64,000 bases of DNA from Candidatus Bathyarchaeota archaeon (GCA_963707955.1 OY970176.1:1600001-1664000); one strand, 5' to 3'. Numbered from the stretch's first letter, positions 24,100 to 64,000 are shown. Notes: generated by a model not told the origin, from the letters alone. Numbers and translations: made by a program.

Positions 24100-24218
24100 G
24101 ACATTTCGACCCTTCTGTGATTCTTGCTTTTGGCATTTAAACGTTTCAACTGCGCGCGAGCGATGTTGTTTGAGAAATGCGTTTTCAAGCTTAGGTCTGA
24201 GCTTGTGACATTATAATG

Positions 24219-27873: not shown

Positions 27874-29097
27874 TTAAAGGTTCGCAAAAAAGTCCGCTAG
27901 GAAGAAATAGCTAAGAGCGGCCAATGCGCGAGGGCTCCGCAAGAGACGCAAAAGCGTTCTTCCCTGAAAGTCTATGTCCTCCACTTTCTGAAGAGTCTTG
28001 TTCAAAGCGAGTTTTGTGCACAATCCGATTAGCCCGTCAAGTCTTCTGTCAGACATGGCGTCGAGCGTTTTCCTCATTCTGACCATCATCTTCGCGTCGA
28101 ACCCCAGGGCTTCATCGCATCGGCGTCCGTAAGCGCTTAGGGATTTTGAGGAAAAGTCGTCTTGGCGAATAGCCTCGCGCGCGACTTCTGCAGCGACTGC
28201 TGCGCACGTCATCCCGAAGATGACGCCTCCCCCCGTGGTGGATTTCACCTGTGAGGCTGCGTCTCCAACCGCTAAGAACCCGTTTGAATAGGCTTTCGGT
28301 ATCGGGCCTCCCAGCGTTATCGGGTGAGCCGTGATTTTATCGATTTTTGCCTTGGCCAGTTTCTTTGAGGCCACAGGATGCTTGGCCACGAGTTTTTGCA
28401 GAAGCTCCTTTGGGTTTCTGGCCTTTGCTGCAAGTCCAACCTTTGCCTTCCCATCCTTCTTAGGTATCAGCCACGCGTAGAAGCCGGGAGCATAATCTGC
28501 TCCCAAGTAAACCTCGACCATGTCGAGCTGTGTGCCCTTGACGTTTTCAGCTTCCGCCTCGACGCCGTTGACTAACATACGCTGGTTGGGACCTCGCAGA
28601 CCCGTTTGCCTGAGTATTTTCGAGGATATTCCTTCAGCGTCTATGACTATCTTGGCCAGTCTGTTCTCGGTTTTGCCTTGCCGTCTTATCGTGACCCCCT
28701 TCACGGTGCCATCGTTAACCATCAGACTTTCAACTCTTGAGTCTAAGCAGTACTCTGCGCCTGCGTCCTGTGCTCTTTCTGCAAGGTACTTCTCAAAGAG
28801 GGCACGGTCAACCACGCAGGTCACGGGCGAAGCAAGGCGCACCAAGAATCTTTTGCCAGTCGGCGAGTAGAAAGCAGCGCCTCGAAAAGTGTTCTCAACG
28901 ATTTCGACGGGAAGAGTGTGAATCCTCAGACGTTTAAGACCTCGTATGCTGAGGTGACCGGGGCAGTGGGATGGAAGGCCTATTTCGCTGTGCTCTTCGT
29001 ACACTCTGACGTTGACGCCTAGTCTTGCAAGTTTCAAAGCTGCGAAGGAGCCAGACGGGCCGCCTCCAACCACTATTACGTCGGCAATTTCCTTCAT
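27874..29097 (-). CDS. Geranylgeranyl reductase-family flavoprotein
   Basis: VVGGGPSG, APGFYAWLIP and VGDAASQVKSTTGGG. Confidence 0.88.
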   Translation of the reverse strand: MKEIADVIVVGGGPSGSFAALKLARLGVNVRVYEEHSEIGLPSHCPGHLSIRGLKRLRIHTLPVEIVENTFRGAAFYSPTGKRFLVRLASPVTCVVDRALFEKYLAERAQDAGAEYCLDSRVESLMVNDGTVKGVTIRRQGKTENRLAKIVIDAEGISSKILRQTGLRGPNQRMLVNGVEAEAENVKGTQLDMVEVYLGADYAPGFYAWLIPKKDGKAKVGLAAKARNPKELLQKLVAKHPVASKKLAKAKIDKITAHPITLGGPIPKAYSNGFLAVGDAASQVKSTTGGGVIFGMTCAAVAAEVAREAIRQDDFSSKSLSAYGRRCDEALGFDAKMMVRMRKTLDAMSDRRLDGLIGLCTKLALNKTLQKVEDIDFQGRTLLRLLRSPRALAALSYFFLADFFANL

Positions 29098-45956: not shown

Positions 45957-46217
45957 CTTCTCACTAGTTGTTTACTCGTGCAGGAAGACCGTGCAACTCT
46001 ATGATTTTCCTCATTCCTGCGATCGTATTTGCAACAAGCCTCTTTAGGTCAAAGGTCTGCAAGGCCTAGCCTCTCAGGCTGTTAACTGCTTTGCGGTTTT
46101 ATGTTTTGCGCAGTGTGACGCCTTGGCAATTCCCAGCTAGATCTCTCATGATTTTAGACTGGCGCGCGCGGGCAGAAAGACATAATAGTTCTTTGAAGCC
46201 ACGGTATTGTGGAAACA

Positions 46218-46493
46218 ATGAAAATAAACATTGACGTCCTAATGGTCATTCTTCTCGTGATCTTCGTGGGGAGCCTAGTCGGGCTTATAATCTATGGCGA
46301 GGTGTGGCGCATCAACCTCTCGATGACTGACACGCAGATTGAAAACTTCGATGCAGAACGCACGCGAAACGCTTTCATATTGTCAGCTGTTTGTATTGCA
46401 TCCGGGGGCTCCATGTTATATATACTTATTACAAGGTTCTCGCCGGAAAAAGAAAAGAAAAAGGTCTCTGCCTCCGGCGTCACCCATGAATGA
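46218..46493 (+). CDS. Small membrane protein with two TM helices
   Basis: Two hydrophobic helices, flanked on both sides by (GC)4-5 runs. Confidence 0.6.
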   Translation: MKINIDVLMVILLVIFVGSLVGLIIYGEVWRINLSMTDTQIENFDAERTRNAFILSAVCIASGGSMLYILITRFSPEKEKKKVSASGVTHE

Positions 46494-46635
46494 AGTATCG
46501 TGTTTCTGTTGAATTGCGGTCGCGCAAGGACCGCGCGCGCGACGGAGGGTTAGCAAGTGTCAAAAACAGCGTTTGACTTTGTGAAATTTTATATTCGTTG
46601 CATGTTATATCCTTAACATGTTTGGGGGAAGTGGC

Positions 46636-47495: not shown

Positions 47496-48263
47496 TTAGC
47501 TAGGTTTTCCTAGGTCTCTCACTTTCTTGGCTGTTTCCGCAGGGTTTTCTGCGAGTGTTATCTCTCTTCCCACGATCAGATAGCGCGCGCCAGCCTCTAT
47601 GGCCGGTCGAACCGTTGCACCTTGAGCTCCTATTCCAGGCGAGTATATTGGAACCTTTTCTCCGAGTATTTCATGCACTTCTTTTATCTTCTCAGGGTAA
47701 GTCGCGCCCACAACTGCGCCGTCTGCGTCGTATTTCAGAGCTTTTTTTGCGAAGGATATGTACTGAAACGTTTTCGCGCCGCTTTCAGTTTCAATGATTG
47801 TTTGCCCGTAGCCTTCAGCTGCGGCTTTGTGACTCATGTAGACGAGGAGGATTACCCCGCGGCGCAGTCGGCGTGCAACATCAAAGATGGGTTTCAACCC
47901 TTCTTCCCATCCGGTGAATGGGTTGGCTATTAGGGCGTCGAAGCCCGCGGCATAGTAGTACTCAGCGATAACTTGGTTCGTGGCGCCGATGTCATTCGCC
48001 TTGCAGTCCATTATTGTCATCAATCCGGCATCGTGAGCCTTTCTGACAAGTTTTTCAACACCGTCAAACGTGCCCAGAGGAAGGACTAGGTGATGGTTGA
48101 ATTTGACAGCGCAAATGTAGGGATGAACAATGTCCAGAACGTGTTCTGCTTTGAGAAAGAGGGCCCTTCGGTTTTTTGGGTTTTCAAACGGAAAGTCAAA
48201 AGCCAAAACGATGTTAGATTCCTTTTCCCTTGCCTTCTTTTCCATCTTGACGCGGAAAGACAA
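47496..48263 (-). CDS. pyrF: Orotidine-5'-phosphate decarboxylase
   Basis: DCKANDIGATN, VVGATYP, YSPGIGAQG and IVGR. Confidence 0.92.
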   Translation of the reverse strand: MSFRVKMEKKAREKESNIVLAFDFPFENPKNRRALFLKAEHVLDIVHPYICAVKFNHHLVLPLGTFDGVEKLVRKAHDAGLMTIMDCKANDIGATNQVIAEYYYAAGFDALIANPFTGWEEGLKPIFDVARRLRRGVILLVYMSHKAAAEGYGQTIIETESGAKTFQYISFAKKALKYDADGAVVGATYPEKIKEVHEILGEKVPIYSPGIGAQGATVRPAIEAGARYLIVGREITLAENPAETAKKVRDLGKPS

Positions 48264-48337
48264 ACTCAAACGCCTCTCTCTACTTGGTGATAAGACTAAA
48301 AACTCTTTTGCTTCCCACACTTGCCCAACTGCTATTC

Positions 48338-53963: not shown

Positions 53964-54166
53964 CTTTTTCTTACTCCTACACTTCCTTTAAGCAAACAAT
54001 CTGATCTGCTGCTTTATATATCTGTTCCAATTCCAATTTAAAGACGCCGAGAAATCTTTTAACGTGTACAACGCTAGAAAATGTCTCCATGCGAAGAAAC
54101 CGTGTTTTCCTGCTGTCCTCTTCAATCGTGCTTCTAGCTTTGGCCTTGACTTTTTCAAGCGCGCGC

Positions 54167-54249
54167 TGACAGGCTGCCCTGCGGTTGCAGCGTCTAATTC
54201 GAAGGTTACGGTGCATTTCATCGACGTTGGTTCGGGTGACTCAATTCTA
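54167..54249 (+). pseudogene. Fragment of a ComEC/Rec2-type metallo-beta-lactamase gene
   Basis: Reads LTGC...KVTVHFIDVGSGDSIL with no plausible start or continuation. Bounded by GCGCGCGC and GCGTGCGC. Confidence 0.7.
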
Positions 54250-54270
54250 GCGTGCGCTGGTCGAAACGAA

Positions 54271-55161
54271 TCAGATGTCCTTTCTTAACTTCAGAATTGA
54301 CGCGATGTTCGCTTTCTTGTCGATTCTCGGGACGATTTTTCCGGTGGAAGATGTGAACAGTGTTGTGACCCCTGGGCCGTGACCGGCTATGACGCAGTTT
54401 GTGTGTACTGTGATGCCGACGGAGATCGCGCCTTGTTTGTATATCCTTCCGAAGGTGTGGTCTGCGTCAATTATGGCAACGAGGTCTCCTAGTCTCAGGT
54501 CGTCGAGGCCAAACTGTTTCCTCACTTTTTCATCGAAGAGCTGAATGTCGTAGTCTCCGGAATAAGTCTGGTTGGCGCCGAGTCCTGAGCCCATGATGGC
54601 GGCTGGAACCATGTGAGTGACCGGAACCTCCAGCTTGTCACCTTTCAATCTGGGTTTCAATGCTGTCAGAAACTTGGGGTCCAAATTCATCACCGTGACG
54701 TGAGGAGCGTCTAACAGTTGGAGGCCAACTCCGAAAGCTTTGACGAGAAACTTGTCCCCGATCACAAGTTTGTCCATGACCTCGGGCTGAACATCGACTA
54801 GCACGTGTTCTATGCCGCCGTGCTTGCCCGTGACAACTCCTTTTGAACCCTTGGCTTCGCCACTTATGATCGTGGCCTCATTCCCAACGCATGAGAGCAC
54901 GTTGAAGGCGGCGTTTGCGCCTTGTCCAAAGCGCGGGTCGTTCTCTTTGTTTTCAACGCTTACTCCAGGTTCAACATGATCGGCTTGCCATCCTGAGGCC
55001 GGGTCGCCTACCCTGATGTTATAGGTGATTCCTCCGACGCCTGGCAAGACCACTGGGTTCCCTTGAGCCGTGATCCTGTAGACGTCTCTTCCGAACACGG
55101 GGCTCACTACTTCGCCGACGACCGAGATCTTCACTAACTTGTCCTCGTTGGTTCTCAACAT
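54271..55161 (-). CDS. DUF4438-family protein
   Basis: LPGVGGITYN, DHVEPGVS, GKHGGIEH, IMGSGLG, GDYDIQ and GHGPGVT. Confidence 0.8.
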   Translation of the reverse strand: MLRTNEDKLVKISVVGEVVSPVFGRDVYRITAQGNPVVLPGVGGITYNIRVGDPASGWQADHVEPGVSVENKENDPRFGQGANAAFNVLSCVGNEATIISGEAKGSKGVVTGKHGGIEHVLVDVQPEVMDKLVIGDKFLVKAFGVGLQLLDAPHVTVMNLDPKFLTALKPRLKGDKLEVPVTHMVPAAIMGSGLGANQTYSGDYDIQLFDEKVRKQFGLDDLRLGDLVAIIDADHTFGRIYKQGAISVGITVHTNCVIAGHGPGVTTLFTSSTGKIVPRIDKKANIASILKLRKDI

Positions 55162-55334
55162 TCAACATTCCACGTTAGATTATGTGGTTTGCAGGGCGGA
55201 CACTAATAAAACTTGGCCTAGTCAAAATTGTGACGTGCGAGGTGAATACGGGAAGTTTTAAATTTGGGGCTCTCTTTTGAGTTGAGTGAAGTCAAACCTT
55301 AATAGTGGCATGCATTATTTACGTGGCGAGAACC

Positions 55335-55918
55335 ATGGCTGAGATTGGACTAAGGTCTAAGATGCTGGTCAAAGACGTCATGAGCAGCCCAGCGGTTACC
55401 GTGGACGAAAATGCTCCTGCTAACAAAGTTGCGGAACTCATGGCTAAACACGAGTATGGATGCATCCTAGTGACGACCAAGCAGGCAAAGCCGATGGGAA
55501 TCATAACTGAGAGGGACCTTGTTGTAAGAGTCTTGGCTAAGAACGTCAAACCTGACACCGTTAGGGCTAAGACTTCATGACTTCTCCGCTGATGACGATC
55601 GAATCGGACGCAACGATAAACGAGGCAGCCAAGAGAATGAGCAAACTGAACATCAGACGTCTAGGAGTCACGTACAAGGGACAGCTTGTCGGAATAATAT
55701 CAAGCAAAGACGTCTTGGCCGTCATGCCTGAACTTTTGGAAACAATACAGGAGAAAGCCATGATAGAAGGTGAGAACATGGCTGAAGAAGCACAGAAGGA
55801 ATCGACACCCCTCACCGGATACTGCGACCACTGCGGAGTCTGGTCTGACAGCTTGACAGAAGTCAACGGCGAATTCCTCTGCGAGGACTGCAAGGTTGAA
55901 CTGGAAACTGAGGAGTGA
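55335..55918 (+). CDS. CBS-pair protein with C-terminal Zn ribbon; one base missing near 55570
   Basis: VKDVMS, GIITERDL, IRRL and GYCDHCG...LCEDC, joined from two ORFs. Confidence 0.82.
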
Positions 55919-56715
55919 GAGGAGATCTTTTGCGTGTCAAAGAGGTCATGGATCAAAAGCATCCGTCGATCTATGAAGACCAGCTCGCCACGAAAGCACG
56001 CGCGATAATGAGAGAGTTTAACCTGAGGATTCTTCCAGTAACCGATAAGAACAAGATGCTTCTGGGAAAAGTTTCGCGCCGCGACGTGATGACCATTTCT
56101 TCATCCGTGTCGCCGATAACCGTGAAAGGCATTATGACATCTGCAAAGCACATCGCAACGGTTGAGGATGAGGTAACTTCAACGTTTAGAGCTATGCTTC
56201 GAGTGGATGTTTGGCATGCACCCGTTGTCGCTTCAGCCGAGGACAGAACCTACAGGGGGGTCGTAGGGTTAGAAAGCTTCATTGAATCACTGATGAAAAC
56301 GAGTCCTGACCGATTTGTGAAGGACGTTTCCGAAATCATGACCACAAAGGTCGTAACATGCTCTCCAGAGGACGAGATTGACGATATCTGGCGCCTCATG
56401 ACAGAAACGCGGTTCGCAGGATTGCCGGTTATTAAGAACGGGAAGTTTGCGGGCATCGTTACGCAGAAAGACCTTCTTGAATCTGGAGCTATGCTGCCGA
56501 CCTTCGAGTCTAAGAAAGGACGCTTCCGAGACTCGCCAAAAATATCTTCTGTAATGAATACAAACGTAGTTTCTGTTGAGCCTTCAACAAAGGTGATCAG
56601 AGTTGCCAGAGTCATGGTTACGAAGAACGTTGGAAGGATACCGGTGGCGGACAAGAATGGGAAACTGCTCGGTATAGTGGATCGCGAAGACGTAGCAAGA
56701 TTAGTTGTCAGGTGA
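55915..56715 (+). CDS. Four-CBS-domain protein
   Basis: Repeated VxxxM...LPV...GIVTxxD motifs. Confidence 0.88.
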   Translation: MRGDLLRVKEVMDQKHPSIYEDQLATKARAIMREFNLRILPVTDKNKMLLGKVSRRDVMTISSSVSPITVKGIMTSAKHIATVEDEVTSTFRAMLRVDVWHAPVVASAEDRTYRGVVGLESFIESLMKTSPDRFVKDVSEIMTTKVVTCSPEDEIDDIWRLMTETRFAGLPVIKNGKFAGIVTQKDLLESGAMLPTFESKKGRFRDSPKISSVMNTNVVSVEPSTKVIRVARVMVTKNVGRIPVADKNGKLLGIVDREDVARLVVR

Positions 56716-56727
56716 GCGTGAGCACAA

Positions 56728-57636
56728 TTGAGCGGAGAAGGCTTCAGAAGAAGGCTGCGGGGAACAGGCCCCCTAGACTTGAAGACTCATCCTTCCAAGA
56801 ACCGTGAAGGCGAAATACTTACAGTTGCAAAAAGCCCCGTTGTAATGGTGGCTCCAACTACGCCTATTTATGACGCGGTTCAAAAAATGGCGAAGGAAGG
56901 ATTTCGCCGGCTACCCATAGCTAATCCTGGAACCAAATACTTGGAGGGAATCGTCACAGCCACGGACATAGTCAACTACCTCGGCGGCGGGCAAAAATTT
57001 GAGATAATCCAGCATAAGTACGGTGGAAACTTCTTCAAGGCCATAAACGAGCAGATCCGGCTCATAATGACTCAGAAAGTCATTTCGATCACGACTGAAG
57101 CAAAAATAGGTGAAGCAATCGAGAAGATGAAAGAATCAAACCTCGGCGGCTTGCCCGTAGTGGATGAAAAAAACAGCGTAAAAGCCATAGTGACCGAGCG
57201 TGACATCGCAGTTCTCTTCGCCGACCGAACGAGCGGCGTAACCGTTGCCCAACTCATGTCAGAGAACGTGGTCACGGCCTTGCCCCAAACGACGATATTT
57301 GAGGCTGAAAAAACCATGGTGACGCACGGATTCAGAAGATTGCCGATAATCTCTGACAGCAAGCTCATCGGCATAGTGACGGCCATGGACATCATCCGCT
57401 TCTTCGGCTGCGGAGAAGTCTTCAGCCACTTGCGATCCGGAACAATAATCCAAGTTTTAAACACGTCTGCGCTTGAGATAGCGACAAAAAACGTTTCAAC
57501 CGTAGAACCGGAAACCGACGTGGGTCAAGCTGCAAAGATCATGAGGGAGAAAGACATAGGAGCCGTTCCCGTTGTCAAGAACGGAGTGCTCGTAGGCATA
57601 TTCACAGAAAGGGACTTCTTCAAGATAATCGAGTAG
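56728..57636 (+). CDS. Four-CBS-domain protein
   Basis: GFRRLPI twice, GIVTATDI and GIFTERD. Confidence 0.88.
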   Translation: MSGEGFRRRLRGTGPLDLKTHPSKNREGEILTVAKSPVVMVAPTTPIYDAVQKMAKEGFRRLPIANPGTKYLEGIVTATDIVNYLGGGQKFEIIQHKYGGNFFKAINEQIRLIMTQKVISITTEAKIGEAIEKMKESNLGGLPVVDEKNSVKAIVTERDIAVLFADRTSGVTVAQLMSENVVTALPQTTIFEAEKTMVTHGFRRLPIISDSKLIGIVTAMDIIRFFGCGEVFSHLRSGTIIQVLNTSALEIATKNVSTVEPETDVGQAAKIMREKDIGAVPVVKNGVLVGIFTERDFFKIIE

Positions 57637-57873
57637 CATCGAGTAGCCCTCGCTGTTGAGCTGTAGCCCTCTGTCATTCTTTTTCACTACTAAATGGAAA
57701 ATTCGGCCTCCACTGCACTCTTTCGCCATTTTGAATCCAGATTTTCACTGGCCATCCACAATCAATAGGCCGTCTGAAAAGTCTGAAAGAATATCACAAT
57801 TTCTCATGGAAACGACAAATGCCTAAATAAGATCATCAGTAATGCAAGCTAAGTATCAGGAGAAACAGGTAAC

Positions 57874-59013
57874 ATGGTCAAACCAGGCACTTATTTTTGG
57901 TCAGGAAACGAAACCTGCGTTGAAGCAGCAATAATCGCTGGTTGCAGATTCTTCGCTGGATACCCAATATCACCCTCAAACGAGATACCTGAACGCCTTT
58001 CAGAACGCCTACCGCAGGTTGACGGCATATTCATGCAGATGGAAGACGAGCTGGCTTCGATAGGCGCGGTTATGGGCGCCAGCTGGGCAGGGAAGAAGGC
58101 TATGACGGCCACTTCTGGACCGGGCTTCAGCCTGATGCAGGAGACTATTGGCTGGGGCTTCATGACTGAAACCCCGTGCGTGATAGTTGATGTTCAAAGA
58201 GTTGGACCGGGCACTGGACAGGCAACCAAGTGCGGTCAAGGAGACGTCATGCAAGCACGTTGGGGAACTCACGGTGACTACGCGGCAATCGCGCTTTCGC
58301 CTAACTCGGTGCAGGAGATGTTCGAAATTACGGTAAGAGCTTTTAACTTGGCTGAAAAGTATCGCACGCCCGTGATCCTGTTGGCAGACGAGACCATAGC
58401 TCATTTGAGGGAGCAGGCAACTGTGCCGCGACTTGAGCAAATAGAAATATTCGACCGAAAGAAACCAGGACCCAGCGACAGAGCTTTCTTCGGCTCGGAA
58501 GAAGTTGCTCCGATGCCGTCGGTAGGCGAAGGCTTCAACGTCGCTGTAACAGCTTCGACCCACGATGAGTATGGTGTCCGATTTACACAGGACCCGCTTG
58601 TTCACAGAAGAATGTTAAGCAAACTTAATGCCAAAATAAATGATCACGCAGACGACATCGTTGAAGTGGAAGACTACAACGTTGACGATTGCAAGGTTGG
58701 CATAGTCTCCTACGGCTGCACGTCCCGCGCTGTCTACGAGGCTACTGAACGGGCAGAAGCTGAAGGAATGAGAACGGGCTACGTCAGACTGAAGACAATC
58801 TGGCCTTTTCCAGACAAAGTCGTTAAACGACTCGCTGAAAGCGCTGAGAGAATAATCGTTCCAGAGATGAACCTTGGGCAAATCAGCCGCGAAGTACAAA
58901 GAGTTGCGTGCGACGCAGAGGTTATTCCGCTGAACAAGATCGGCGGAGGAGAACTTATCACGCCTGAAGAATTGCTGGCCAAGATTCTGGAAGGAGGCAA
59001 GCAAAGTGACTGA
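57874..59013 (+). CDS. 2-oxoacid:ferredoxin oxidoreductase alpha subunit (KorA-like)
   Basis: FFAGYPISPS, QMEDELAS, TATSGPGFSLMQE and VPEMNLGQ. Confidence 0.9.
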   Translation: MVKPGTYFWSGNETCVEAAIIAGCRFFAGYPISPSNEIPERLSERLPQVDGIFMQMEDELASIGAVMGASWAGKKAMTATSGPGFSLMQETIGWGFMTETPCVIVDVQRVGPGTGQATKCGQGDVMQARWGTHGDYAAIALSPNSVQEMFEITVRAFNLAEKYRTPVILLADETIAHLREQATVPRLEQIEIFDRKKPGPSDRAFFGSEEVAPMPSVGEGFNVAVTASTHDEYGVRFTQDPLVHRRMLSKLNAKINDHADDIVEVEDYNVDDCKVGIVSYGCTSRAVYEATERAEAEGMRTGYVRLKTIWPFPDKVVKRLAESAERIIVPEMNLGQISREVQRVACDAEVIPLNKIGGGELITPEELLAKILEGGKQSD

Positions 59014-59846
59014 AGCGTTCTCACCTCGAAAATACATGAGAGACTTAAAATTGCCCTTCTGCGCAGGCTGCGGACTTTTTTCACTCAGTGACGCTTTTCT
59101 CAGAGCTGTACACGAGACTGGGCCACGAAGACCTGACAGGGTTCTGCTTCACAAGTGGCATAGGCTGCTCTTCATGGATTCCTTCGCCCTATTTTGAAGC
59201 CGATTCTGTGCACACACTTCATGGAAGAAGCATACCGCCCGCCACTAGCATAAAACTCATACGCCCAGACCTGAATGTCGTGGTCTTCGGCGGCGACGGA
59301 GACATAGTCGGCATAGGCCTGAGCCACTTCCTACACGCAGCGAGGAGAAACACCGATATCCTCGTCATAATGGGCAACAACATGGTTTACGGAATGACAG
59401 GCGGCCAAGTAGCCCCCACAACACCCTTCAAAACGCGGACGACAACCACGCCGTACGGAAACTTCGAGTATCCGATAGACGCGGCGAAGCTCGCGGTTGC
59501 GGCAGGAGCGGCATACTCAGCGCGATGGACAACCGCGCATCTGCACGAATTAGTAGAGTCCATCAAGAAAGCATTGCAGATGCAAGGTTTCAGGTTCATC
59601 GAAGTTGTGACCCACTGCCCAACAACCTACGGCAGGAGAGCAGGATTCAAAAACATCGCAGAAATGCTCAAACATTTCAAAGAAAACGCCGTCACAGTTG
59701 AGCAAGCTGAAAAGATGAGTCCTGAAGAGCTTGAAGCGAAAATAGTCATCGGAGAATTCGTTTCAAGAAGACGCCCAACACTGGTTGAAACAGTCTACGC
59801 CATGATTAAGGAGGCAAAGGAAAACGGCGAGCAAAACAGAGATTAG
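59006..59846 (+). CDS. 2-oxoacid:ferredoxin oxidoreductase beta subunit; 1-nt insertion near 59117
   Basis: FCAGCG in the first ORF; SGIGCS, HTLHGR, GGDGD, YGMTGGQ and HCPT in the second. Confidence 0.88.
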
Positions 59847-60351
59847 AATAGGCGGAAGTGGCGGGCAAGGCGTAGTCTTGGCTGCCCAAATATTGGGCAA
59901 GGCCGCAGTCCTAGATGGGAAAAACGCGTTACAAACGCAGGCATACGGGGCTGAAGCAAGAGGAAGCCTTGCCGAGAGTGAAGTCATAATCTCGGACAAC
60001 AAAATAGGGTTCCCAGCAGTCAGAAGACCCGATGTACTAGTGGCTATGAGCCAAGAAGCACTTGACAGGCTACTCAAGGATTTGAAGGAGAATGGAACGC
60101 TGATAATTGACAGTTCCAACGTGACCAAGGTGCCCGAGTCAAAGGCAACGGTCTATAGGTTTCCGATAACAGAAGCGGCGAAGAAAACTTTCGGAGAAGC
60201 CATGTATGCTAACATGGTTATGCTCGGAGCTTTCGTAAGGATGACCAGACTGGTCACAGTTCAATCAATGGAAAAAACGATAAGAGAAAATGTCTCTGCA
60301 AAGACTGTGGAAACCAACATCAACGCCTTTAGAAGAGGATTACAACTCTAA
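59824..60351 (+). CDS. 2-oxoacid:ferredoxin oxidoreductase gamma subunit; apparent ACG start
   Basis: EIRIGGSGGQGVV lies upstream of the called TTG; QAYGAEARG and NMVMLGA follow. Confidence 0.85.
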   Translation, partial: TASKTEIRIGGSGGQGVVLAAQILGKAAVLDGKNALQTQAYGAEARGSLAESEVIISDNKIGFPAVRRPDVLVAMSQEALDRLLKDLKENGTLIIDSSNVTKVPESKATVYRFPITEAAKKTFGEAMYANMVMLGAFVRMTRLVTVQSMEKTIRENVSAKTVETNINAFRRGLQL

Positions 60352-60524
60352 TCTAGCGTACGCTAGGTTTTCTGTTTGGATCTAGAATATTTGAACCCGA
60401 ACGATGTCAGCAGTGGCTCTGTCGTTTAAGCCTTAGTTTATCTTCTATCGTCCTGCAGATTGAGGATTTCTGTTTTTGAGGCTTTTCGTGAATTTGTCCT
60501 TGTTGCGTTTCCTCTAGGTCCTGT

Positions 60525-61313
60525 CTAACTTGGGCGTCTTGTTTGCACACTTTTTCTACGGACAATGACTGCTAGAAGTGTTGCCGTCATGAACAATGGC
60601 AGAACAAGAAGTGATGGAAACTCTGGTACAACCCCACTCCAATGGACAGTTAGTATAGGAGCATAATCTGAGATGGAAAATTCCTTAGAATTGAACGAAA
60701 TTGATGAGACGAGACCAGAAGGAGAGGGTTCAAACAAGACGATTGTTACTGTTCTGGTGGTGCTGGAAAGCTGTGAAGCTTGAGGTTGAAATTCACTATT
60801 CAAAGCGTATCTGACGGCGTCAACGACGCTCCAATTATACCATTGATTATTGGTTGCAACTAATACTGAGTCCATTGATGTCGTGTTGTAGCTAGGCATG
60901 TTGGAATATGTCAATGTCAATTCTGTCCAAGAAACAAAAGCAGATGCATTCAGGAAATCAGAACCTGAATAAGCATTAACATTGAATGATCCAGTAACGC
61001 TGGACGTGCGCAGCTGAAGTGTTGCCCCATCAATCACTGCCCCATCTGGAACAGAAGACAAATTGAATTTCAGCCATACTATGCTTTCGTAGGCACTATT
61101 GATTTGACTATTGTAATTCGTGATTTGAAGATAGTTCTGCTCGCCATAGTTTGAGTTTGGGTTGCTGGAATCAGCATAGGTATCGTCTGTCGGTTTGAGC
61201 GTAACGTCACCAACTTGAGCACTGACGGATTTGGTACTCAAAGAAAATAACAATACGACTAGGCCTAGTACGATCAGAAGCTTCCCACTAACATCAAACT
61301 TCTTTTCACTCAT
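60525..61313 (-). CDS. Secreted DNRLRE/CBM96-like domain protein with PEF-CTERM-like sorting signal
   Basis: Signal peptide, PTDDTYADS..PNSNYG...LKFNLS, and C-terminal VPEFP + TM helix + RRK. Confidence 0.8.
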   Translation of the reverse strand: MSEKKFDVSGKLLIVLGLVVLLFSLSTKSVSAQVGDVTLKPTDDTYADSSNPNSNYGEQNYLQITNYNSQINSAYESIVWLKFNLSSVPDGAVIDGATLQLRTSSVTGSFNVNAYSGSDFLNASAFVSWTELTLTYSNMPSYNTTSMDSVLVATNNQWYNWSVVDAVRYALNSEFQPQASQLSSTTRTVTIVLFEPSPSGLVSSISFNSKEFSISDYAPILTVHWSGVVPEFPSLLVLPLFMTATLLAVIVRRKSVQTRRPS

Positions 61314-61529
61314 TCTTAAACCCCAAATTCATCTTCTCTTATGTTGAACAGCGCAGCCGTTGGATTTTATCCTAAGCTTTAGTACATCATGTTTCAGAAG
61401 CTAGTACGGCTTCACACCCACGCGCGCGCTTCTCATGCGACATAGAACTGGAAATGGGAAGTTTCCATCATTCTTTTTAGGCTGGTTTCGTTGTGTACTG
61501 CAACAACTTCAGCGAATTGTGACCATTCC

Positions 61530-62030
61530 ATGAGCGTGCGAATCAGGAAAGTGAAGGATGAAGAGGTTTCAGCAATCCTTAGATGGCTAGACGACCCTCC
61601 TTTCCGTTCCGAGTTTCTGGCATTCGGCAGAGATTCGGATTCAATGGTTGCTGAGAAGTTAGGAGACGTGGTTCACGGTACGGAAGAGGCAAGTTATCTA
61701 GTGATCGAACGGATAACGGATTCAAAGCTTATCGGCTTAGTGTTCTCCCACAAAGTTTCCAATTTTCATTACTTCGAAGTGGGGTTCTACGTTATTCCTC
61801 AGGAAAGAAGCAAGGGCTACGGCACGAAAGCCATGAGATTACTCCTGGAATACATCTTCGAAACCCAATCAGTTAAGACGATTGTGGCTGGAACGTCTTC
61901 TCTGAACGTAGCATCGCAGAAGGCCTTGCTGAAAGCTGGGTTCAAAAAAGTTGGGATGCTCAAGAAGACACTTTTCAGGAATGGTTCGTGGGAAGATTCG
62001 ATAATCTACCAAGTCACGGGCGATGAGTGA
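61530..62030 (+). CDS. GNAT acetyltransferase (RimJ/RimL-like)
   Basis: EVGFYV..ERSKGYGT and NVASQKALLKAGF. Confidence 0.85.
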   Translation: MSVRIRKVKDEEVSAILRWLDDPPFRSEFLAFGRDSDSMVAEKLGDVVHGTEEASYLVIERITDSKLIGLVFSHKVSNFHYFEVGFYVIPQERSKGYGTKAMRLLLEYIFETQSVKTIVAGTSSLNVASQKALLKAGFKKVGMLKKTLFRNGSWEDSIIYQVTGDE

Positions 62031-62090
62031 GGTTTAGAAGGTTCGCTGAAGAAGGAAAGAGGGTCTCAAATCCTTCAACAGGGCGCGCGC

Positions 62091-62279
62091 TGAGCAAGAT
62101 TGATGTCGAATACGGTCTTGATGATATGTTGAAGTTCAGAGACAACGTTTTCGTTCTTTTCTATGCTTCATGGTGTCCTTTTTCACAGAGGTTCTTGCCA
62201 AATTTCGAAAAGTTCGCTCAAGGCAAATCGCAGAGTTGTCTACGCGTTAAGACTGGCGATAAGGCAAGTCTGCGAGAAA
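62091..62279 (+). pseudogene. Truncated thioredoxin-like gene
   Basis: VFVLFYASWCPFSQRFLP (CxxS) present, but no cis-Pro/C-terminal strands and no own start codon. Confidence 0.7.
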
Positions 62280-62389
62280 GCGCGCGCGTTAAGGCTGACG
62301 TTGTCGATCGCTGCGCTGACTGCCAAGAATCCTGGTGCAATCACAGCTAGAATAACCGTGATCGTTGACAGTGCTTTCTTTAGGTTCAT
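62240..62389 (-). pseudogene. Signal-peptide-only remnant of a secreted protein gene
   Basis: GGAGGTGA RBS then MNLKKALSTITVILAVIAPGFLAVSAAIDNVSLN, running into the (GC)4 run and a stop soon after. Confidence 0.6.
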
Positions 62390-62786
62390 TCAGTCACCTC
62401 CTATGTTGTTTTGAAAAGAAAGAAGACCTAGCTCTGTTTCGAGGGAATTAGCGCGCCCTTGGGAACACTTTTATTTAGGCACCCTTCAGCCTTGGATGGG
62501 TTTCCCGGTTCAATCCAACAAATGCAACTGTTGCCTGTCAGTTTGCTACAGGGTTGAATCGCTGGAAACCCCCCTTTCCTTCCTTTTGAGGAAACGTGCA
62601 GGAGTAAAGTTTGCCTAGCTTGGGAACATTTAAGAAAGTTGCCACCTAGAAAGAGTCCTTGGTAACAGGATATGTTCTCCAAGTTGCCTGTACCTAAGTC
62701 ACTTCTCTGAGCGGGCGCTAAATTGAAAAGGTGACAAAACTTCTATATATGTTAGGTGTCTAAGCTTGAACTAGCAGAGATCGAAT

Positions 62787-63011
62787 ATGAAACCTGAGCA
62801 TTATAAACCGATAAGGAAAGAAAAGCCCAAACGAAAGGGCAAGATTAGTGCGCGCAAGAGTCGAATGCTTGCAGTGGCTCAAGAATGGAAACCCATTACT
62901 TCTCTACAATTGCGTGAGGCTTACTCTGCTAAAATAGAATGGGTAAGGAAGCTAATTCCCAAATTGAAAAGAGAAGCAGAAGCGCCGGAAGAAAAAAAAG
63001 AGCTTAGATAA
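62787..63011 (+). CDS. Small basic hypothetical protein
   Basis: 74-aa K/R-rich ORF with a TATA-like CTATATAT about 40 nt upstream. Confidence 0.45.
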   Translation: MKPEHYKPIRKEKPKRKGKISARKSRMLAVAQEWKPITSLQLREAYSAKIEWVRKLIPKLKREAEAPEEKKELR

Positions 63012-63667
63012 GCGTGTGTGCAAATTCTGATGGGCTTGTTTTGGCTGTTTCCTGATAAAAGAAGCATTTTCAAACATAAAACCATACAAAAGAACCAAAA
63101 AAGCGAATATCAAAAAAGGCAAATGTAGTAAATGATAAAAAAGATGGAATATCGATCGATAGAAATCCTCAACAGTCGTTCAGCGCCCGCATGATTGTTC
63201 GGTTTTTCATTGATTTTTCTGGGAATGATGACATCAAGAAGAGTCCTGCGTCCACGAGCTATATCATAACCTACAACGACTTCGCGCGCGCTTCTTCTTT
63301 TCTCCTTACTTTTTCAACGTTACTCTTTCCATGTTTCCATTTTCCTCGGCTTTTCATTCTTTTCAAAAATCGTTCTCTTTTCGCCTGCTTCTTCTCAGAT
63401 CGTTTCAAACAAATCTTCCCTCCCAGAATCAAATAGTAACAACAAACAAGAACTATAACCTATCACCTAAATGCGAAGTGAATGCTGTGTCTGAAACCGG
63501 AATCTAGGATAAGGGAGCCGCGTGAAAACATCCTCAGGATGGCTCTGTTGTTTAATCGCTTATTAGGGAGTATACGTAGTATAGGACTGCGGCGTTCTGT
63601 TGTTGAAGGACGAGAAGAACACAGCAACGTTACAAGTTAAAATCAATGATGAAAGATGTGATGGAAA

Positions 63668-63955
63668 ATGGCGGAAAAATCGGCAATTGTTTTCATTGGA
63701 AGTAAAACACCAATGGACTATGTTCTAGCAGTTATCACCAGACTATCCGCGGGCGATGCTAAGGAAGTGATCTTGAAAGCACGAGGACGAGCAATCACAA
63801 CAGCTGTTGACGTAGCTGAAATAACCAGAAATCGCTTCCTAAAAGACCTAAAAGTGAGCAAAATAGCTATCGGAACAGAGGAGATGCCGGCAAGAGAAGG
63901 CGAAAACAGAGCAAGGATGGTTTCAACAATAGAAGTAACGCTTACAAAAGAGTAG
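63668..63955 (+). CDS. albA: Second Alba paralogue
   Basis: [26 protein letters not shown] and VSTIEV. Confidence 0.92.
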
Positions 63956-64000
63956 GAAAAGCCCTGCTGAACAAAGCGTCAACCGGTAATATCCTTCTTT

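Follow-up and report, generated by a model that had tools for sequence, protein, structure and literature searches.

REP/BIME sequences are lineage-specific intergenic palindromes that occur by the hundreds and are insertion sites for certain insertion sequences (ISs) of the IS1397 type; REPs are imperfect palindromes of 20–40 nt, which fold into stem-loops and are associated with the RAYT (Y1) transposase. Transposons of the IS5 group typically have a short palindromic target duplication, for which 4-bp GCGC would be typical, and piggyBac, whose target is the palindrome TTAA, moves by seamless cut-and-paste. Integron cassettes and Xer-dependent dif modules are gene-sized, vary in order, and lie between short palindromic sites of 28 bp or longer. 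HIP1 (GCGATCGC) of cyanobacteria is an octameric, G+C-rich, lineage-restricted palindrome that is many-fold over-represented. Its enrichment and conservation extend over coding DNA, where all three frames show them, and over non-coding DNA, and it is better conserved than control palindromes are (PMC5861425); it is also associated with cognate methyltransferases (PMC4390886, PMC13756078).

The window analysed here is a stretch of 64,000 nt from Candidatus Bathyarchaeota archaeon (GCA_963707955.1 OY970176.1:1600001-1664000), an uncultured Bathyarchaeia archaeon with a genome of 2.35 Mb (G000), and we searched ten congeners that include its nearest relative (G001), the more distant G007, and G003, G004, G006, G008, and G009. 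The motif is the short palindrome GCGCGCGC, which has hundreds of intergenic copies in the host genome and the consensus (T)A-GCGCGCGC-T(A). A sequence-only reading of the window had counted nine alternating G/C runs of at least 8 nt, and each of the nine is present at the position it gave. Just two lie inside long ORFs, the two it had placed in core genes: CGCGCGCG at 28176-28183, inside a 407-aa ORF (27874-29097, minus strand), and the run at 47583-47590, which is conserved in G001 and G007 and lies inside ORF 47496-48320 (minus strand). Three lie between ORFs, namely the run at 46162-46170, which is a 7-mer in G001 and contains a 184-bp MITE-like insert in G007; a 10-mer at 46532-46541, which G007 retains but G001 lacks, having unrelated bases there; and the run at 54159-54166, which borders a variable stretch of 83 bp in the host and 232 bp in G007. 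The other four lie in the tail of the window, and the shorter GCGCGC(G) at 24152, 36938, and 40402 are likewise present.

GCGCGCGC occurs eight times in the window compared with 1.19 on average across 100 shuffles that preserve dinucleotides, none of which reaches eight. The genome-wide comparison with a Markov background that the same reading had suggested bore out this excess, with 464 copies observed where 25–34 are expected (orders 0–3), and GCGCGCGC ranks first among the over-represented 8-mers of the genome, in which other dinucleotide octamers have 17–79 copies and other G+C palindromes 11–33. Using a rough ORF caller to place 419 runs, we found 366 that are intergenic, 40 that are coding, and 13 that straddle a boundary; the density of GCGCGCGC is 0.767 per kb in non-coding DNA versus 0.025 per kb in coding DNA (~31-fold), and its 45 copies in coding DNA are 4.9 times the 9.2 expected at order 3. 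The likeness to HIP1 proposed earlier is apt in one respect. Both are many-fold over-represented, lineage-restricted, G+C-rich octameric palindromes, but the Bathyarchaeia motif does not share the coding enrichment of HIP1 and does not appear to share its conservation, its host is an archaeon, and neither a C5 methylase nor Vsr was found in the host genome.

Run density is alike in tandem, convergent, and divergent spacers (0.55–0.88 per kb), runs are scarce within 40 nt upstream of start codons and frequent 50–150 nt upstream and within 30 nt past stop codons, and 16 runs lie 200–400 nt upstream of the Alba start codon across 59 full-length Alba loci of related metagenome-assembled genomes (MAGs). 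Such placement, the occurrence of the same canonical 12-mer in several families, and a weak link to transposases described below would suit a palindrome that is functional or mutation-driven and unrelated to transposons (the target of an abundant DNA-binding protein, a boundary or Z-DNA-prone element between transcription units, or a methylation and repair bias as proposed for HIP1), with transposons and breakpoints coinciding merely via its intergenic place and its 8 bp of perfect G+C microhomology. We consider this explanation unlikely, since only 268 of 1,722 rough intergenic spacers carry a run, with runs concentrated in variable islands, and since base-pair-exact junctions and motif-split elements demand more than co-location. 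The conservation of the runs also looks neutral, with no sign of purifying selection in the few sites aligned: identical runs were found at 4/10 and 4/9 intergenic sites (19 sites only), compared with 45% and 60% for all intergenic 8-mers. The search for a cognate methyltransferase that had been recommended may likewise speak against a methylation bias; C5 methylases were found in only two of the ten congeners, there are eight N6_N4_Mtase matches, and the one methylase family checked across the class does not follow the motif, being present in 5 of 28 motif-rich genomes.

The motif had been viewed as a feature of one accessory mosaic and is instead a property of the whole genome, of the genus, and of a patchy part of the class. 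AGCGCGCGCT has 7–92 copies in all ten congeners versus 0–1 in 20 other genomes of the order (reversed control, 0–4), and 28 of the 301 genomes of the class have at least ten copies; these are spread patchily over at least six Bathyarchaeia families, and the distribution varies within genera. The flanks of the runs have zero information content past ±2, leaving a conserved unit of 8–12 bp, and the run-bearing palindromes in positions 54000–64000 of the window are at most 14–20 nt. The resemblance to REP/BIME consists in hundreds of lineage-specific intergenic palindromes that would serve as IS insertion sites, and it does not extend to the unit, which here is short with flat flanks, or to the Y1 transposase (PF01797), which was found in none of 31 genomes by a search whose control was positive in 6 of 14 reference genomes. 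Because the pattern recurs in all ten congeners, which are separate assemblies, and the motif is the top 8-mer genome-wide with a window count that no shuffle reaches, chance and low-complexity noise are refuted as explanations. Assembly chimeras are refuted with them: one 4,631-base contig from a public run extends over 59800-62744 and differs from it once, and because it spans the junctions at 60352, 61421, 62083, 62280, and 62451, the concern that these five might be chimeric can be put aside.

Ends of homology between genomes and of repeats within the genome fall on runs at 5–8 times the rate of random intergenic positions. Comparison of synteny breakpoints with the motif, a check that the sequence-only reading had proposed, showed that 21 of 170 ends of G000–G007 homology blocks have a run no more than 10 bp away, compared with 1.5% of random intergenic positions; for repeats within the genome, 47 of 873 intergenic ends have one no more than 3 bp away, versus 1.1%. 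By manual reading, a run marks a junction of 9 of 28 clean indels, and homology is unbroken at 10 of 60 motif sites compared with 289 of 596 random intergenic sites. The items bracketed by runs include gene-sized modules, gene fragments, and a 1.75-kb cargo element. The claim that the octamer is a junction for insertion and deletion holds in part: insertion, deletion, and rearrangement breakpoints coincide with it well above chance and segments are run-bounded here, in paralogues, and in congeners, but ~85–90% of homology breakpoints lie away from the motif.

The tail of the window (60353-63963), which we propose forms the left margin of a 40-kb variable island assembled via motif junctions, illustrates such segments. 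Synteny with the congeners (homology to G007 and G001) stops at 60352. Immediately 3' of the stop codon of the 2-oxoacid:ferredoxin oxidoreductase (OFOR) gamma gene lies the degenerate 14-bp palindrome CTAGCGTACGCTAG (60353..60366), which contains GCGTACGC at 60356, is part of a 20-nt, 90% palindrome across 60350-60369, and corresponds to a perfect GCGCGCGC at the same place in G001. Module 1, which follows, is a surface-protein gene (60525..61313, minus strand) with a DNRLRE/CBM96 domain. Its product, assigned earlier to the PEF-CTERM kind, ends in PEF, a hydrophobic stretch, and a basic RRK tail and has no match to a PEF-CTERM model at E≤0.01. The locus is occupied in G001 by a different gene of ~1 kb with a perfect 8-mer on each side, and in G007 by other, run-free sequence. 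The run CGCGCGCGC (61421..61429) separates module 1 from the GNAT acetyltransferase gene (61491..62030, plus strand), the identity of which is upheld by a match to Pfam Acetyltransf_3 (64 bits).

The region 61495-62720 is 94% conserved in G001, including the run GCGCGCGC at 62083..62090, upstream of a thioredoxin-like stretch, and the run GCGCGCGCG at 62280..62288. The latter is the common end of the thioredoxin-like gene fragment (62138..62279, plus strand) and of an oppositely oriented signal-peptide stub (62240-62389, minus strand), an arrangement noted before. The fragment, residues 38-84 of ORF 62027-62350, has 55% identity over those residues to genome positions 1167137-1167277 (tblastn); homology ends at the run, and the Pfam Thioredoxin score of the ORF (21.4 bits) is below the cut-off of 23.5. 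Of the five sites called degenerate, those at 60356, 62711, and 63012 are backed by perfect runs in G001 or in a paralogue, and the one at 62451..62456, given as GCGCGCCC, is a six-base run GCGCGC that is kept in G001. This six-base run adjoins the start of a 150-nt structured repeat (62464..62614, plus strand; fold z-score -2.56), which has several copies of 88–93% identity in each of G001, G004, G007, and G009, no second copy in the host genome, and no Rfam match.

Module A (62706..63014, plus strand) consists of a 74-aa basic ORF (62787-63011), which matches no Pfam or NCBIfam family, and its upstream region. It is bounded on the left by the degenerate run GCGGGCGC (62711..62718), which is perfect in the paralogue at 1418607 and in G001, and on the right by the degenerate run GCGTGTGTGC (63012..63021), which is CGCGCGCGC in a paralogous copy. 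Two more copies are present in the genome, at 1418602-1418912 (97%) and 870112-869872 (92%), one of them inverted and truncated, and homology among the copies stops inside the runs. At the equivalent of 62711, G001 has a 2.6-kb insert with TCTGA and a run on both flanks. In G001, contig C2 breaks off within module A. The run CGCGCGCGC at 63283..63291 is the exact left end of module B (63284..63963, plus strand), an Alba gene (63668-63955) with a 380-nt leader, and position 63284 is the start of three intragenomic homology blocks and of several in congeners; the paralogues are 1415709-1416389, 868917-870802 (interrupted), and the leader-only 1678638-1678842.

Inverted repeats beyond the run are absent from modules A and B and from the G001 cassette, modules differ in order and orientation among the congeners, and the site after the OFOR gamma stop holds three different cassettes in three genomes. 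A recombinase, for example a tyrosine recombinase, that swaps promoter-bearing modules in either orientation between palindromic core sites, in the manner of integron cassettes or Xer-dependent dif modules, would produce such a picture, and the host genome has nine Phage_integrase matches, one in a gene (847225-848070) that ends ~50 nt before the run at 848120. We nevertheless judge this very unlikely, as tyrosine recombinases occur in 25 of 31 related genomes irrespective of the motif, the 12-bp site is shorter than recombinase sites typically are and far from attC length, and neither an array with a fixed integrase platform nor a common orientation was seen. The suggestion of a minimal cassette system received no support; with modules in both orientations and sites of 8–12 bp, we found no evidence of a dedicated capture system. 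Joined or circular forms were likewise not seen in the contigs compared, although contigs of this kind would not have revealed them.

That no recombinase is encoded, as had been remarked, is true of the window, but outside it genes for IS5-family DDE transposases lie in motif-bracketed elements. One such gene is located 11 kb downstream of the window (genome 1671513-1672498), in an IS that at 1671430 reads GCGCGCGC...GCGC, and a second IS, at 389 kb, reads TA|GCGCGC...GCGCGC|TA. Both encode DUF772 and DDE_Tnp_1, frameshifted in the host; intact copies are found in G003, which has an intact 331-aa ORF, G006, and G001, as well as in another family. The autonomous elements resemble the IS5 family in their length of ~1.1 kb, their inverted repeats, and their DUF772 and DDE_Tnp_1 protein of ~330 aa, and they have MITE derivatives of ~200 bp with matching ends and common terminal inverted repeats. 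One MITE family has 22 near-full copies, mostly with 6+6 G/C bases, A before, and T after, and a second is also bracketed. Unlike usual IS5 elements, these have derivatives with passenger genes and would have a hyper-abundant target of 8–12 bp, the G/C bases being either target or element end. The cargo element, which carries a MEDS gene, is present only in the host, and its empty site in G001 and G007 is an intact 8-mer without TA flanks; this comparison of aligned loci shows one insertion into a pre-existing 8-mer. The element is flanked by 8+6 G/C bases, and with eight at the empty sites this agrees better with a duplication of 6 bp than with one of 4 bp, or else with an original run that was longer.

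The G/C run could alternatively belong to the element. Elements whose inverted repeats end in GCGCGC(GC) and that insert at TA, duplicating it, would leave solitary TA-(GC)n-TA as scars of excision or of tip-to-tip deletion, so that the motif would document past transposon activity and the run junctions would come from transposon-mediated deletions and rearrangements. The target-site duplication of the bracketed elements is compatible both with GCGC-type bases in the run and with TA outside it. In genome G111, both ends of all seven IS copies read exactly GCGCGC, and TA lies outside the left end in six and the right end in five, and the MITEs are mostly 6+6; a 13.4-kb insert (1414420-1427855) starts with its own run, and its empty site in G007 reads ...AATA|ACTC... 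without one. The patchy distribution, variable within genera, resembles repeated invasions. Runs are conserved no more than neutral intergenic 8-mers are and gene fragments end at them, both in line with scars, and growth in copy number would be explained. Tip-to-tip deletion of elements with six-base tips nonetheless predicts TAGCGCGCTA, which has 5–10 copies versus 13–39 for the 12-bp palindrome TAGCGCGCGCTA in five of five motif-rich genomes from three other families (3–6 times rarer) and 13 versus 19 in the host. Run lengths beside related IS copies also vary, (7,8), (8,4), (6,5), (6,6), and (7,6), which is more in keeping with bases taken from the target than with a fixed end of the element, and of 56 small gaps of at least 6 nt in aligned blocks only two touch a run, neither of them as a simple run-plus-TA indel. 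Together with the TA-less empty sites of the cargo element, these observations make this alternative possible but improbable.

We give an even chance to the reading in which (T)A-GCGCGCGC-T(A) is a hyper-abundant intergenic palindrome that is the preferred insertion site of IS5-type DDE transposons, MITEs, and at least one gene-carrying non-autonomous element, and our verdict is a HIP1/REP-like transposon target in archaea. The motif is almost purely intergenic and belongs to certain Bathyarchaeia lineages; on this target reading, the transposase would recognize the palindrome, and the element would insert at its center with duplication of a few G/C bases, giving TA-GCGCGC[element]GCGCGC-TA. 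By analogy with piggyBac, whose transposase is of a different superfamily, a duplicated palindromic target would let excision restore the site exactly, which would fit the intact 8-mers at empty sites; no excision event was seen. Insertion, element loss, and recombination between hundreds of identical 8-bp G+C copies, with microhomology probably driving deletions, would make the motif a recurrent break-and-join point, and accessory segments, truncated genes, and duplicated modules would start or end at it for that reason.

Several observations count against a transposon target. The G111 pattern is equally expected of a TA-duplicating element with GCGCGC-tipped inverted repeats, most runs are solitary, and run-bounded modules are without inverted repeats. 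The 8+6 bases beside the cargo element, the run-free empty site of the 13.4-kb insert, and the large share of breakpoints away from the motif speak against it too. Solitary runs as members of IS or MITE families were considered and rejected, given that an inverted-repeat interior adjoins only 16 of 455 runs of at least 8 nt (null ~0.9% per side) and 813 of 838 run flanks are unique. The transposase family is present in 11 of 28 motif-rich genomes compared with 52 of 273 others, and DUF772 is found in five of ten congeners and in neither G004 nor G008 (93% and 88% complete); MAGs often lose IS copies, and the link of motif to transposase family is weak and not strong evidence either way. The abundance of the motif is also left unexplained by the target reading because a short duplication turns one 8-mer into two 6-mers and never makes new 8-mers. 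A bolder idea, which we find quite doubtful, is that TAGCGCGCGCTA provides Bathyarchaeia with the core site for a minimal system of module exchange that propagates itself, in which promoter-bearing modules without inverted repeats of their own would be cut and joined at bare palindromes by the IS5-like transposase in trans or by an unrecognized recombinase, each event leaving a palindrome on both sides. If true, it would account for both the junctions and the abundance. Such modules would include additional paralogues of Alba, TBP, and SSB-like proteins as well as small basic proteins and surface proteins.

Our literature search, confined to sources outside subscription journals and supplements, turned up no account of the motif; the papers retrieved on MITEs, IS5 elements, and palindromic target sites in archaea do not concern it by title or abstract. 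Bathyarchaeia are abundant uncultured archaea of sediment and soil, and little is known of how their genomes change. Assemblies of these organisms break at such repeats, for example at the end of contig C2 of G001, which calls for caution by annotators. The motif would be an archaeal counterpart to the long-unsolved HIP1 problem that comes with intact site-using transposons ready for experiments, and it may offer a sequence-specific insertion tool. If a site of 8–12 bp marks a large share of accessory-gene junctions in these archaea, it would serve as a marker for variable islands and mobile elements in MAGs.

The sequence-only reading had counted nine runs of eight or more alternating G and C in the window, and our recount returned the same nine positions (starting at 28176, 46162, 46532, 47583, 54159, 61421, 62083, 62280, and 63283). 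The octamer GCGCGCGC occurs eight times in the window versus 1.19 expected, and 0 of 100 dinucleotide-preserving shuffles attained eight copies. The source genome is a single contig of 2,346,764 bp with 47.9% G+C, of which the window represents bases 1,600,001–1,664,000, and it contains 464 copies of GCGCGCGC versus 25–34 expected under Markov models of orders 0–3. This octamer ranks first in over-representation among all 8-mers of the genome, and ranks 2–6 are occupied by its own one-base shifts or extensions (AGCGCGCG, CGCGCGCT, CGCGCGCG, TAGCGCGC, and GCGCGCTA). Other dinucleotide octamers occur 17–79 times each. Runs that start with G and end with C number 4,197 at 4 nt, 348 at 6 nt, 231 at 8 nt, and 43 at 10 nt, which places the 8-mer far above geometric decay. 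An A precedes and a T follows GCGCGCGC in 241 of the 464 copies each; one step further out T (before) and A (after) are commonest, and beyond this the flanks are flat.

Runs were assigned to genomic compartments by using our own rough ORF caller, which predicted 2,011 genes (77% of the genome) and misses some real genes, for example, the surface-protein gene at 60525. With these gene calls, 366 of 419 runs are intergenic, 40 are coding, and 13 straddle a boundary, corresponding to a density of 0.767 per kb in non-coding versus 0.025 per kb in coding DNA. Under compartment-specific order-3 models, the observed/expected ratio is 5.9 in non-coding (406 vs. 68.7) and 4.9 in coding DNA (45 vs. 9.2). 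Spacer type makes little difference, as tandem, convergent, and divergent spacers all have 0.55–0.88 runs per kb, and the 40 nt before start codons contain few runs. The runs are clustered, with 19.9% of the gaps between them shorter than 500 bp versus 8.6% for random scatter, and run-dense islands are located at 380–400 kb, 800–880 kb, 1,660–1,700 kb, and 2,280–2,320 kb. Within the window, runs 28176 and 47583 lie inside long ORFs, runs 46162, 46532, and 54159 lie between ORFs, and the other four lie in the tail (60353–63291), which forms the left margin of the 1,660–1,700 kb island. In this island, runs separate most small ORFs. In the syntenic part of the window, a 94-aa ORF (46209–46493) has runs 46162 and 46532 on either side; run 46162 holds a MITE-like insert in the congener G007, and run 46532 is absent from the congener G001.

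The sequence AGCGCGCGCT is present in 114 copies in the source genome and in 7–92 copies in all 10 congeners searched, whereas 20 genomes of other genera in the same order have 0–1 copies (reversed control, 0–4). In a set of 301 evenly drawn Bathyarchaeia genomes that are at least 80% complete, 28 have at least 10 motif copies, and the control reaches no more than five copies in 27 of those 28. The motif-rich genomes fall in seven families (f1, f24, f26, f27, f29, f35, and f36), and the spread within a genus can be large, as in genus g104 with 83 copies in one genome versus 1–10 in others. In five of five motif-rich genomes from three other families, the 12-mer TAGCGCGCGCTA is present in 13–39 copies versus 5–10 for the shorter TAGCGCGCTA. 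Therefore, the canonical motif is a 12-bp palindrome with four GC repeats, and its distribution is patchy. The palindrome had initially been taken for a feature of a local mosaic of accessory genes; with 464 copies in the source genome and 28 motif-rich genomes among 301, it is instead a genome-wide motif distributed patchily over the class.

We compared the source genome with 400 kb of G007 (~92% identity) and 208 kb of G001 (~94% identity); among the three, G001 is the nearer relative and G007 the outgroup. Homology blocks of at least 300 bp between the source genome and G007 have 170 ends, of which 21 are no more than 10 bp away from a run in one genome or the other (random intergenic positions, 1.5%). 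Repeats within the source genome have 873 intergenic ends; 47 of these come within 3 bp of a run, compared with a null of 1.1%. By our reading, 9 of 28 clean insertion/deletion differences have a run of at least 6 nt at a junction. Among the 60 motif sites that could be aligned on one side or both, homology continues unbroken at only 10, compared with 289 of 596 random intergenic sites and 61 of 137 isolated GCGC sites. The link of runs to breakpoints is real, yet the majority of breakpoints are elsewhere. The proposed role of the octamer as an insertion and deletion junction is thus supported by these statistics (21/170, 47/873, and 10/60), as well as by the anatomy of the modules in the window tail.

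Homology of the source genome to both G007 and G001 ends at 60352, one base past the stop codon of the oxidoreductase gamma gene, and beyond it the three genomes carry three different inserts: the degenerate palindrome CTAGCGTACGCTAG, a surface-protein gene, and CGCGCGCGC in the source genome; GCGCGCGC, a gene of ~1 kb, and GCGCGCGC again in G001; and other sequence without runs in G007. A single 4.6-kb contig of a public run spans 59800–62744 with one difference, and the junctions within are therefore not assembly errors. The gene identities given by the sequence-only reading are broadly right: the GNAT acetyltransferase gene (61491–62030) stands, the thioredoxin-like fragment (62027–62350) is recovered below the Pfam cut-off, and the surface protein (60525–61313, minus strand) matches a DNRLRE/CBM96 domain and carries at its C-terminus PEF followed by a hydrophobic segment and basic residues, but has no match to PEF-CTERM models at E ≤ 0.01. 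G001 shares the region 61495–62720 with the source genome, and with it the run on each side of the thioredoxin-like piece. Homology of this piece to a paralogue at 1167137–1167277 spans residues 38–84 and stops at run 62280, where the signal-peptide stub on the opposite strand also terminates. Module A (62706–63014) has a further copy at 1418602 that is delimited by two perfect runs and another, in inverse orientation, at 869872. Its left end in G001 holds a 2.6-kb insert, which has TCTGA plus a run on either side. The left boundary of module B (63284–63963), which comprises the Alba gene (63668–63955) and the leader before it, coincides exactly with a run; three more copies of the module, full or partial, exist. 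Across related MAGs, a total of 16 runs are located 200–400 nt upstream of the gene at 59 full-length Alba loci. We found no inverted repeats beyond the run itself in the modules of this region, A and B included. In contigs of four public runs, which cannot show rare forms, no excised or rearranged form has a joint at a G/C run; the only joints (60762–60796 and 61199–61359) come from run X5 alone, lie away from G/C runs, and may stem from relatives. Loose contig ends at 62711, 63014, 63284, 63287, 63489, and 63957 match the flanks of the source genome's own paralogous copies.

The tail and the variable islands have additional features. The 74-aa ORF of module A (62787–63011, plus strand; also at 1418602–1418912 and 869872–870112) is multi-copy, rich in lysine and arginine, and without a Pfam or NCBIfam family; a viral origin was rejected after no relative was found among viral contigs. 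Run 63283 is overlapped by another basic ORF, 53 aa long (63271–63432, minus strand). Elsewhere in the source genome, outside the window, a repeat of ~170 bp that begins with CGCTACATCCCTGTATTCGCGTTTT and contains CCTCCCCC, itself among the most over-represented 8-mers, is present in at least 20 copies (e.g., 2331197–2331399, 729060–729235, and 1818440–1818628). After several of them comes ...TCTTCTGGTTTCAT, which on the opposite strand reads ATG AAA CCA GAA (M K P E), a putative start like that of the 74-aa ORF. A 150-nt element at 62464–62614 with a strong predicted hairpin (z-score −2.56) is single-copy in the source genome and present in several copies with 88–93% identity in each of four congeners; a search of 60000–64000 against Rfam-type RNA families gave no match at E ≤ 0.1, this element included. 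The element may represent a small RNA gene or a further MITE. Extra paralogues of Alba, TBP, and SSB-like OB-fold proteins lie side by side in the islands (1416094–1417771, stretch L126 6094–7771; 870483–873461, L132 10483–13461; and L131 38–484). The regions scanned contain three TBP genes, and a TFB gene lies just past the window (L127 4086–5084). A thermosome gene (Cpn60_TCP1; 1667136–1668792, L127 7136–8792) is divided between two ORFs (446 and 104 aa), which jointly span the family profile; the division may be genuine or result from a frameshift or a sequencing error. A C-terminal Cas1 fragment (profile positions 151–279 of 283) stands alone in a motif-rich island (862597–863160, L132 2597–3160).

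The source genome contains two degraded IS copies whose DUF772 plus DDE_Tnp_1 proteins belong to the IS5 family. One (389,080–390,105) reads GCGCGC-ATGCGTGTTCC...GGAACACACAT-GCGCGC with TA outside both ends, and the other (1,671,430–1,672,548), located 11 kb beyond the window, has the sequence TTA-GCGCGCGC-CAGCTTGTTGC...GCAACAGGCTG-GCGC. The ends of a 205-bp MITE match the IS, and its 22 near-full copies mostly take the form TA-GCGCGC...GCGCGC-T. The ends of a second MITE family read GCGCGC-TGGCTTGTCCC, and ends of this type also delimit a 1.75-kb cargo element, which lacks a transposase and contains a MEDS-domain gene together with a zinc-finger ORF. Intact IS copies of three subtypes are found in the congeners G003, G006, and G001; the one in G003 (L140 1402–2394) encodes a complete transposase of 331 aa. 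Taken by themselves, the elements enclosed by the runs are of ordinary types, namely IS5-family transposons and MITEs. Class-wide, the association of the motif with the IS5-like transposase family, one of four families tested, is weak (11 of 28 motif-rich genomes and 52 of 273 others). The sequence-only reading was correct that no recombinase is encoded in the window, but its view of the mechanism needs revision: IS5-type transposons, with one copy 11 kb away, would use the palindrome as their insertion site.

We favor insertion into a pre-existing palindrome, at about an even chance, over the unlikely alternative that GCGCGC belongs to the transposon tips and that solitary runs are scars. The cargo element is present only in the source genome, and G001 and G007 each have an intact 8-mer at that site, which argues for a pre-existing target and against tips. 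Run lengths vary beside related IS copies, being (7,8), (6,5), (7,6), and (6,6) in G003, G006, and G001 and (8,4) at a degraded copy in the source genome, and the 12-mer TAGCGCGCGCTA outnumbers the 10-mer expected from tip-to-tip deletion of 6-base tips; both observations again count for the target and against tips. An arrangement of 6+6 G/C bases, expected from a 4-bp central duplication of an 8-mer, likewise counts for the target. Ownership of the bases by the element is suggested by a 1.12-kb IS in G111, a genome of another family, in which GCGCGC is constant at both ends in seven of seven copies with TA outside (left 6/7, right 5/7), and by a 13.4-kb insert that begins with a run and whose empty site in G007 has none; the motif count could also grow under that alternative alone. 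Filled and empty MITE site pairs in 608 kb of G001 and G007 involved too few elements, and the flanks of one G111 IS copy were not found in its congener G105. At one IS copy in G111 (L158, C1:587184–588837), the left flank TTCGGATA and right flank TATCCGAA are mutually reverse-complementary; therefore, that insertion hit a palindrome of ~24 bp centered on the motif.

Several other sources of the motif were considered. A single large MITE family with runs as its ends was rejected because 813 of 838 flanks are singletons on clustering, and an adjoining inverted-repeat interior accompanies 16 of 455 runs of at least 8 nt. Birth or loss of runs through small indels was rejected since a run is involved in 2 of 56 gaps. 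Purifying selection on runs is not visible in a small sample, in which identical aligned intergenic copies number 4 of 10 in G007 and 4 of 9 in G001 (all intergenic 8-mers, 45% and 60%). A C5-methylase/Vsr route to abundance was rejected, as the source genome has neither PF00145 nor PF03852; a C5 methylase is present in 2 of 10 congeners. Also rejected were a RAYT/REP origin (Y1 transposase in 0 of 31 genomes), tyrosine recombinases as a mover specific to the lineage (they occur in 25 of 31 genomes, with or without the motif), and a methylase–Mrr_cat fusion as cognate enzyme (in 32 of 301 genomes and just 5 of 28 motif-rich ones, with no association). Two paralogous fusions of an N6_N4 DNA methylase with an Mrr_cat nuclease (~1265660–1268425, L148 2660–5425; ~993006–995657, L149 3006–5657) each adjoin an IS6-like (DDE_Tnp_IS240) transposase gene. 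IS630 (DDE_3), IS110, and TnpB were not found in the source genome. A more novel reading, in which the palindrome is the core site of a module-exchange system that would account both for its abundance and for the movement of modules lacking inverted repeats, is quite improbable.

The nearest known analogue of the Bathyarchaeia motif is HIP1 of cyanobacteria. HIP1 is described as enriched and conserved in every reading frame as well as in non-coding DNA and is reported to be an insertion site for SDR5 repeats (PMC5861425), and it is linked to cognate methyltransferases (PMC4390886, PMC13756078). The resemblance to HIP1 first suggested from the sequence holds for hyper-abundance, palindromy, lineage restriction, and use as an insertion site. 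Unlike HIP1, the Bathyarchaeia motif is almost confined to non-coding DNA, is not conserved in excess, and has no evident methylase. REP elements are similar in location and number but unlike it in length and associated transposase. As an insertion site for IS5-type transposons, the palindrome would, through its many identical copies, also provide microhomology for deletion and rearrangement.
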